Origin: Perna viridis
Taxonomy: Eukaryota
Length of the DNA stretch: 64,000 nucleotides
Direction: 5' to 3'
Assembly (NCBI GenBank): GCA_037379345.1
Contig: CM074512.1
Location: 45,694,001-45,758,000, forward strand
Below are positions 24,301 to 61,025 of the stretch, piece by piece. The notes beneath the pieces were generated by a model that saw nothing but the letters and a program-made list of their open reading frames with translations, was not told the DNA's origin and ran no database searches. Every line of letters starts with the position of its first letter. The stretch's first letter is position 1. The position numbers and the translations under genes were made by a program.

Positions 24301-27300
24301 TTAATTACAAGTTATTTTACAACACCCATAAACTTCAGGAATGGAATTTAATACAGCTGAATAATTCAGGTACAATAGCAAAGTTTGATGGGTAGGAGGA
24401 TTTAAGGGTGATATGGAAAATAACAAAGCAAAAGAGTAGAATGAGTGCTGAATTTAGAGATGTAACTGTATTGCCCTCACATCTAACATTTGAACTGTAT
24501 GGTAAAATTTATCTAACACCCTCACAAAAATCATCTTCAACTTTCTCTTGTAGACTGTTAGTACTGTAATAGTTATTCAGCTGAGAAAAGCTCCATTTGC
24601 ACATGCGGACAGTCTGTTTTACCTGCATCCTAGAGATACAAACTTGTAAAACACAAGAATCGTCAAAAGCCTCCATCATACAGCCAACCCACACCTCATG
24701 AAACAGTTTTATACACATCATAATAATGAACACAGTTCTCGCAGTGACTCTAGGCGCATTAAAAACATATGGCACATATAGTACTATACAGAACAACCGA
24801 TCTCCAATGTAGAATTTGTTTTCCTCTATATTTCTTAAGTGGAAGAACCTCCATTGTGAATTTATCTCTTTCCTGAAGAGAACAAAGGAAAACCATATTC
24901 AAAAGAGCAAGATAAAATTGCTATTTCGTAATTGCATGATCTGATTATGAATATATTCAACACACATAATATGTAACATGCTTCAGGACATACGTTTTTG
25001 CCACAACAAATCTCACTGCACTATAATCTGCATACACACAGCAGAATTTCAACTACAATATTGTTCTAATCTACTGTGTATAAGTGTTAGACTGCCTACT
25101 ATATATAATATTAAAGTTACACAAATTATATGCATTCACTTGTTCATCATTAATAAAAAATAATATAGTTTTAGGCTTTGCCTATGAACAACATACTCAA
25201 ATAACATTTAACTGTTGATAAAGAGCCGTTATATTGTTATATTGCTCGTTTTTCAACCAACAGGAATATACAAAACTTCCTACATCACATGATGTGTATC
25301 TGCGGCAGAAGTTCAAACAATAACATTCTAACTGCATATATCACTTCCCAAAATAAATTTCATCTGACGGACCGATTTTGAGCCATTCATGTTTAAACAT
25401 GTTATTTACATATGTAGGATGTTACTGATGATCTGTCCCTAAAAAGATTAAAATGTACACTTTCTGTCCAGTTTTATTCTAGTTCAAAAGACATGAATAT
25501 GTATAGGAAATATAAATGCAAGTCTTTTATCAACTCAGGAAACTGATTCCAGACAACTCAATTAATTCATCAAATCAAGAATAAAACAATCTAATACATG
25601 TAAATATTTCCCCAAAACCACTCTATCCAACATTATCAAAAAAATCCTGGAAAGGATGTTGATTCAAGAATGTGAATAAGGATGTTATATACAGTAAGAT
25701 ACTTAAATATAATTTTACACTAATTTACTGCAGTCTTCGAAATTGGGACCAGCCCACCAGCAAATGCTGGTAAAAGTAGCAGTGGGCTTGCAGAAATTTT
25801 GCTTCCAAGCCAGTGTATCCTATATAAAATTCTTTTGAGATTATGAGAAGAGGATTGTTTAGACAGCAAAGGCTGGTTTGGGACTAATTTGTTAACATAT
25901 GGAAAACATTATTAAGACTTAAAATCTTGTATGGTAAACACCCATTGTCTGTATGAAGTTGGAAAGGGAAATAAATATATTTCAATGATTTTTTATATAA
26001 AAAACACACAATTTACAAAAATGGTCCTCTGGTTTTATGTTTATGAACACATGAAAACATATTTTGAAATATTTTCTGTTAAGTATTACATATACCAGTG
26101 TTACATCCCTCTCCAACTATATAGACTGCTATGGTATAATTAAGTAATTTATCAGCAATTTGTGATATTTTCCTTTCATGTACACAGACCAACAATGCTT
26201 GTCACATCGTTTACAAATAGTAGGTCAGTTTATAACCAGGAGTGAAAAGTCTCAATGTCACAGTGGAGGTGATAGATGTTCGCTCATCCTGACAAAATAG
26301 GTCATTCGAAAGTATTCTTTTTCAAGGTCAAATTTATGATTTTGATTTTGGTATTTCTTTAACATACAAAAAATATGAAAAAAAAATGTTACCTATAAAT
26401 TACCAACAAACAGAATATTAGGCACAATGTTTTCGATACTAGCTTTCTCACAAGTATCTCAGGTCTGTTAGTATTCTGTATCAGTCTTGACCAGTTCAAA
26501 ACTTTATTGGCTTGAGAAATATTTATCCACAGTATAATCTATATAGTTTGCAATAGACTTATCCAATGGACAATTTTTGACTAGCTGGACTCAGCTGATC
26601 AAAACTTTATACTCAGGTAGAGTGTACTTATCCATCCAACAAGCTGAATCTGTTGTACAACTGGGTCCAGATTTTGTGATGTTTAGCCTACTTCAATTAT
26701 GATTTAAAAAGATCTTTCTTATCTAAAAAGGAGTTTCTGCGGAAAGATTATTTACATCCATGTCTATTGTCAGCTCAAGGAATTGTCCCACTACCTTTGA
26801 AGACAGTACCTTCCCATGCTAAATCAACCCCTCTTTAATCCAACTCTCTTCTTTTAGGATTGCTTACTTCATTTCAAAACTATTTTGTTATCATTTTACT
26901 ACACCTCCTTTTCAAAACAAATAGCCTTCATTTCTTCTAAACATTAACCATACGCAAAATAAAAATTTTCTCAAATACTCAAAACAATGTGTTCATTTAA
27001 CCTTCATAGCATAATTCAATAACACATATTTTGAAAATTGTACACTTCGTATCATAATGAACATTACAATAACTTTCATGTGACTGAATTATTTTAGGGA
27101 AAAAAAAACACCTTTATATGCTAACTTTTAAATCAGTCGTAACAGGTAGACAGAGACACAATAAAAAATGCTTCTGAAAACTACCAATAATAAATAAGAA
27201 AGCATGCAATAATTTTTTTTTTTTTTCATATTTTAAGGAGAACAGATTTTTTTACTTTATGCAACATTATAAGTATGTAATCAAATCATATTTGTACTAA

Positions 27301-61025: not shown

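Follow-up and report, generated by a model that had tools for sequence, protein, structure and literature searches.

Grailles reportedly described an exon array in the Drosophila MRP gene (CG6214) in 2003, the exon cluster of this gene is said to encode a pocket helix, and the 2017 study of Yue et al. in RNA Biol is said to cover Mollusca. A second member of the family, CFTR (ABCC7), is a channel whose divergence from ABCC4 lies mostly in TM6. The portion of PMC6071210 available to us, citing Yue 2017 RNA Biol, regards the tandem exon duplications of MRP genes as independent across phyla. MRP exon arrays are already in print, and the array described here, in the ABCC4 gene of the mussel Perna viridis, may overlap with Yue 2017; the literature searched, which leaves out most subscription papers, yielded no description of such an array in a mollusc ABCC4 gene. 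The mussel locus resembles the mutually exclusive exon arrays of metazoan MRPs in having tandemly duplicated exons in an ABCC gene. It differs from arrays of the Drosophila MRP/CG6214 type in that the gene is ABCC4, the copies number 14 and their identity falls as low as 13%, and from known MRP arrays in that its exon classes are common to mussel, oyster and snail and that no docking site was found in the search reported below. Judged from sequence, the locus is probably one ABCC4/MRP4 gene whose 14 swappable TM5-TM6 exons would yield pumps that differ in the wall contributed by TMD1 and hence in cargo.

The window, the whole 64-kb stretch of DNA that was analysed, carries an ABCC gene on its minus strand, of which it covers the 3' two thirds. 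Together with 80 kb of neighbouring DNA, the exons of the locus tile residues 1 to 1307 of the 1424-residue homologue P0001, which scores 1590 bits against MRP4, compared to 934 against CFTR and 880 against MRP1. The domain order is TMD1-NBD1-TMD2-NBD2 without a TMD0 and the best match is MRP4, which together identify the product as ABCC4/MRP4. The linker exons align without gaps to P0001 609-734, and P0001 aligns to MRP4 in a single stretch. Later exons were 55-92% identical to Mytilus edulis ABCC4, the array exon c2 matched human ABCC4/MRP4 at E 1e-16, and genome searches with c2 and with the divergent array exon v11 gave strong matches at this locus only. A v11-queried search for longer proteins found none, and v7 alone had no meaningful match in the PDB. 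The gene is one ABCC4/MRP4, for which ATP-driven export of organic anions is predicted.

Like mammalian MRP4, the mussel gene has this domain layout and retains the pocket residues H152, F156, D842, R946, Q994, W995 and R998 in its constant exons. The constant TM9 stretch (6132..6377, minus strand, approximate ends) faces TM6 and keeps D842 and Q845; Cys at T846 and Leu at Q849 distinguish it from mammalian MRP4. The constant TM12 stretch (4283..4384, minus strand, approximate ends) carries the Q994/W995/R998 motif as FQWAVR, in agreement with an initial annotation of this DNA, which had called the TM12 pocket motif of the constitutive exon canonical. The constant exon directly after the array, in which the linker to NBD1 begins, was placed by exon mapping at 17789..17902 on the minus strand.

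Between exon 7 and this constant exon lie 14 tandem copies of a TM5-TM6 exon, eleven of them divergent (v1-v11) and inside the window and three ordinary (c3, c2 and c1) and located 1.6-4.8 kb past the window end. All of v1-v11 lie on the minus strand, measure 247-253 nt, begin at an AG/G acceptor and end at a GT donor, and every one (11/11) is an open frame with intact splice sites. Each of the 14 copies starts in phase 2, finishes in phase 0, has a length of 3n+1 and is bounded by canonical splice sites (14/14). Copy c2 aligned without gaps to human ABCC4 306-387, and the profile of all 14 exons aligned to 305-387; residues are numbered accordingly. The ordinary copies c3 (L001:1598-1847), c2 (L001:3316-3565) and c1 (L001:4556-4805) all have R362, L367 and F368, and the ordinary exon shares F324, R362, L363, L367 and F368 with mammalian MRP4. 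In c1, P370 is replaced by Ala and E378 by Ile, such that TM6 differs even among ordinary copies. Relative to c1, v1-v11 are just 13-24% identical, and the gene thus differs from mammalian MRP4 in offering eleven alternative TMD1 walls. The initial annotation names F368 and R375 as known specificity residues of mammalian MRP4; the R375 column is Phe in c1, c2 and c3, another difference from the mammalian protein, and so R375 is not a conserved anchor here.

The divergent copies carry distinct residues at these positions. v1 (21766..22015) has A362, G367/C368 and P370, and belongs to a 'GC' class that is also represented in isoform X2 of an oyster and in a gene model from Nucella. v2 (24623..24872), the most acidic variant, has H362 (codon 24698-24700) with the same G/C pair, and was identical to a Mytilus edulis exon at 59/83 residues. 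v3 (27302..27551; H362, D367/L368) has a homologue, P0025, that retains both H and D, and v4 (32227..32476; H362, E367/Q368) is its recent sister, with 75% DNA identity and a dN/dS of 0.21 between them. v5 (33774..34020) has H362 and G367/F368, and P0029, P0035 and P0036 retain its H and G; v6 (44894..45146) has H362 and K367/F368, with H and R367 in its homologue P0023. v7 (49232..49481) retains R362 and forms a class of its own outside the His clade described below. v8 (52138..52384) has L362, probably a secondary loss of His, and K367/M368, while v9 (56071..56320) has H362 and R367/L368, v10 (59909..60158) H362, Q367/L368 and P370, and v11 (60776..61025) H362 and K367/K368, with H and KK retained in its homologue P0028 (65/83 identical). 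A decayed partial copy of the v8 3' end and donor was found at 55184..55328 on the minus strand, with 75% identity and no open frame, a sign of ongoing exon birth and death.

These assignments reproduced the residue calls of the initial annotation. It had equated the residue 26 from the exon end with human R362, which the gapless alignment of c2 to ABCC4 306-387 bears out, and had read column 362 of v1-v11 as A,H,H,H,H,H,R,L,H,H,H, the 367/368 pairs as GC,GC,DL,EQ,GF,KF,IF,KM,RL,QL,KK, and P370 as retained among v1-v11 in v1 and v10 only, all correctly; the v8 pair hinges on a one-residue gap set after 371, with Leu362 obtained either way. The extent that it gave for the feature, 24623..61025, did not hold, as v1 at 21766-22015 and c1-c3 fall outside that span.

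A tandem array of 49 bp x 17.6 (31383-32245) opens within v4, at its 3' end, reproduces the v4 donor region and could offer false donors. The intron of 10.9 kb that separates v6 from v5 contains a CENP-B/Tc5 transposase remnant (36159-37058, minus strand), a Mutator-like transposase frame (40860-42542, minus strand) and a His-Me endonuclease zinc-loop frame (40427-40828, plus strand). Other tandem arrays are intronic (30 bp x 102 at 12823-16054 and 44 bp x 17 at 9654-10403), and a 60-bp x 2.2 repeat at 17319-17453 duplicates the last part of the exon that encodes Walker A. In the region of the gene's first intron lies what is presumably a broken reverse-transcriptase-like element (L003-L004, 92668-95118 in window-extended coordinates), and upstream of the gene what we take to be an intronless GPCR-like frame (L006, 121789-122673).

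In the available portions of three sources (bioRxiv 2022.12.22.521501, bioRxiv 2022.12.12.520055, PMC11948813), the hydrophobic ligand face of MRP4 comprises F324, L363, L367 and F368, and R362 binds the sulfate of DHEA-S at a site beside TM9. A set of cavity columns was assembled from MRP4 cryo-EM contacts and from the CFTR pore-lining positions in Table 3 of PMC8640958, itself available in part, at an offset of +14/+15; with v7 ungapped, it comprised 17 cavity columns against 34 other helix columns, or 13 against 15 in TM6 alone. Hydropathy spread was greater in cavity columns than in other helix columns (2.34 vs 1.63; 17 vs 34 columns, p = 0.003), as was the charged share in TM6 (0.23 vs 0.02; 13 vs 15 columns, p = 0.003, or p = 0.006 without column 362) and the difference between within-class and between-class identity (0.51 vs 0.38; p = 0.008, one-sided). 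Within TM6, L363 and L367 were two of the positions that lost most hydrophobicity, and the net charge summed across 15 selected positions facing inward ranged from -4 (v2) to +2. Within a round of 17 uncorrected tests, cavity and other columns did not differ significantly in BLOSUM similarity among variants (p = 0.07) or between variants and the ordinary exon (p = 0.34), and the class specificity of the five direct contacts alone was not significant (p = 0.11). Many TM5 columns outside the cavity also change. These column comparisons indicated that the cavity bias of the changes is real but partial. The initial annotation had described the ligand-contacting face of TM6 as rewritten and had proposed checking whether the variable positions face cavity or lipid. 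The check favoured the cavity, whose columns were the more charged and class-specific; the description applies to that face, but the rewriting extends to the whole exon. Different cargo per isoform is likely on these grounds.

Searching 1.84 billion proteins with a profile yielded 157 matches, and the best 150 of 157 were considered. From 156 rows, P0050, P0068, P0087, P0117, P0145 and P0148 (spurious or broken) and P0120 (short) were excluded before trees and counts; the class and 367-317 counts additionally exclude 3 near-self rows and 8 rows gapped at 317, and IQ-TREE was run on 52 chosen rows. Among the matches listed, v1, v2, v3/v4, v5, v6, v7 and v11 had non-self relatives, and v8, v9 and v10 had near-self rows only. 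Mytilus edulis CAG2238338.1 contains a v5-like exon followed by a v2-like exon, Mytilus galloprovincialis VDI26758.1 is a further named relative of the array exons, isoform X2 of Crassostrea virginica (XP_022343367) contains a v1-like exon, and Nucella lapillus KAL8559265.1 and KAL8592436.1 contain His exons adjoining other copies, the Mytilus and Nucella entries being gene models that fuse several copies rather than transcripts. By sequence similarity, the ordinary, GC, v7 and His exon classes all have relatives in other molluscs. Selection on the divergent exons is purifying: dN/dS was 0.13-0.26 in 6/9 exon pairs, the other 3/9 being saturated.

In the tree, v2-v6 and v8-v11 formed a single clade (support 87.5/95), so the His column does not represent eight separate events. 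The count of His in 8 of 11 variants given by the initial annotation was correct as to residues; over the whole array it is 8/14, and the copies are not independent. His362 was kept in 12/18 non-self rows of the His clade among the matches listed, including Mytilus and Nucella, and was absent from 6/18. Most simply, the eight His copies would reflect one ancient inherited change, later lost in v8. An origin of the His by CpG decay (CGT to CAT) was rejected, as the Arg codon of the ordinary copies is AGG, three changes from CAT/CAC, an argument that uses the ordinary copies in place of an ancestral codon that may differ.

The retention of His362 across bivalves and a gastropod, the presence of D/E363 and D321 in several variants, and the position of the constant D842 and C846, which face the H362 site, could together suggest that His362 and nearby Cys, Asp or Glu form a metal-binding or pH-sensing site. 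Sensitivity to pH is a property of the R347H mutant of CFTR. R347H is listed as a class III mutation in the part of the CFTR literature available to us. The initial annotation had likewise tentatively tied an enrichment of His and Cys to metal or pH-dependent binding. This enrichment resolved into two inherited columns, 362 with its 8 His and 357 with its 7 Cys. Around the helix these are separated by 140 degrees instead of placing several ligands on one face, and the metal connection was not upheld. Outside column 362, His made up 14/911 residues (1.5%), compared to 3.6% in the constant membrane exons, and is rarer rather than enriched; outside column 357, Cys made up 2.2% compared to 1.4%. 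With the His column most simply a single inherited change, and His missing from 6/18 clade homologues among the matches listed, a metal or pH site appears improbable, and one composed of H362 and the constant D842 and C846 found no support; an effect of pH through His362 is possible.

Frame logic allows one copy at a time. Single inclusion gave an open frame for 14/14 copies, and skipping all copies or including any two (91/91 combinations) brought a stop codon no later than the following exon, such that only inclusion of one exon keeps the frame. In C. virginica, the ordinary exon of RefSeq isoform X1 gives way to a v1-like exon in isoform X2, the flanks being the same in both. For P. viridis, transcript hints came from contigs of sequencing runs whose RNA origin is no more than a guess. 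One contig stops following the genome precisely where the v2 acceptor lies, with 16 loose letters, and runs 100 nt beyond the v2 donor; two long contigs enter the constant exon 17789-17902 and their matches stop at 17905 and 17904, a weak hint of two different upstream exons. Matching of v6-v11 at 90% likeness was dominated by repeats; a contig inside v7 was present in both X1 and X18, apparently one and the same data set, and some contigs were intronic. Over v1 and v3 the 4 runs gave no contig cover, which is uninformative as to their use. No joint between a divergent exon and the next constant exon was found among the contigs listed for 4 runs, and the contigs give no more than hints that P. 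viridis splices its divergent exons. The v2 frame continues for 37 codons past the donor to a stop (24509-24623), of which the contig covers 100 nt; this read-through is possibly unspliced pre-mRNA or use of v2 as a terminal exon. Docking and selector pairings were sought in 400-nt flanks of this one species over 6 region pairs, and the best site, shared by 3 exons compared to 1-2 in shuffles, was not clearly above the 5 shuffles. The intron before the constant exon (17932-19664) had low contig cover in 4/4 runs and is partly a dispersed repeat.

Divergent exons that are seldom used or decaying would also differ from one another, through relaxed selection. The failure to find a joint for v1-v3 among the contigs of the 4 runs guessed to be RNA would fit such an account, as would the decayed partial copy at 55184-55328 and the low identity of the divergent exons to c1. 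It is difficult to reconcile with eleven open frames bounded by intact splice sites, a dN/dS of about 0.2, class residues kept across species and an annotated oyster isoform X2, and we consider it quite unlikely.

Under the favoured reading of one ABCC4/MRP4 gene with swappable exons, each mRNA would take exactly one of the 14 TM5-TM6 exons, and mRNAs with two copies or none would be removed by nonsense-mediated decay. The isoforms would have a common, constant TMD2 half of the pocket and differ in the TMD1 wall. One ancestral change from Arg to His at 362 may have left the second anion site (P-site 2) weaker, after which later copies may have swapped the hydrophobic L363/L367 patch for acidic (v2-v4) or basic (v6, v8, v9 and v11) residues. 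His isoforms would then be expected to lose uptake of sulfate conjugates, and v2-v4 to favour cations. Among the basic variants, the salt bridge to the constant D842 would pass from the lost R317 to Lys/Arg367. K/R367 occurred with a non-basic residue at 317 in 15/20 rows, compared to 53/132 of the other rows (p = 0.007; 152 rows among the matches listed, the rows being related). In the accessible part of one simulation study of CFTR (bioRxiv 2025.11.23.690003), D993 pairs with either R303 or R352. As described in the portion of PMC8640958 at hand, P355 and D993 are common to CFTR and ABCC4, and R352/Q353 replace hydrophobic residues; this shared register makes L367 the equivalent of the CFTR R352 site. 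Taken with the choice of partners available to D993, the association with residue 317 suggests that K/R367 is a swap of salt-bridge partner, which is likelier than a channel-like function.

Such a function would make the v6, v8, v9 and v11 isoforms channel-like or leaky and repeat the origin of CFTR from an ABCC4-like pump. As in CFTR, TM6 is again the diverging helix, and these four variants have K or R at the R352 site opposite D842, the kept equivalent of D993; K/R367 was also present in 3 non-self homologues of the His clade among the matches listed. In contrast to CFTR, the same variants have L, D, E and I, respectively, at 317 (the R303 equivalent), His or Leu at 362 (the R347 equivalent) and no Pro at 370 (the P355 equivalent). 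No acidic residue was found at the D924 site of TM8 in the constant exons, leaving the R347-D924 bridge without either partner, and the linker exons, gapless against P0001, leave no R domain between NBD1 and TMD2. With K/R367 in 13 rows outside the His clade among the matches listed, pointing to a common change in ABCC4-like proteins, channel-like or leaky isoforms are very unlikely, and it is just as doubtful that molluscs switch an ABCC4 pump to a CFTR-like anion conduit, with its hydrophobic gate patch removed, by splicing in v6, v8, v9 or v11. If true, pump and channel-like forms would come from one gene.

As one ABCC4/MRP4 gene with swappable TM5-TM6 exons, the locus offers a natural series of TM5-TM6 swaps on a single unchanged ABC-transporter frame. 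The array would allow a direct test of how the TM5-TM6 pair sets the cargo of MRP4, and of whether the TM6 changes tied to the pump-to-channel step of CFTR suffice. For the mussel itself, studies of detoxification that treat ABCC4 as a single product may be lumping together as many as 14 proteins.
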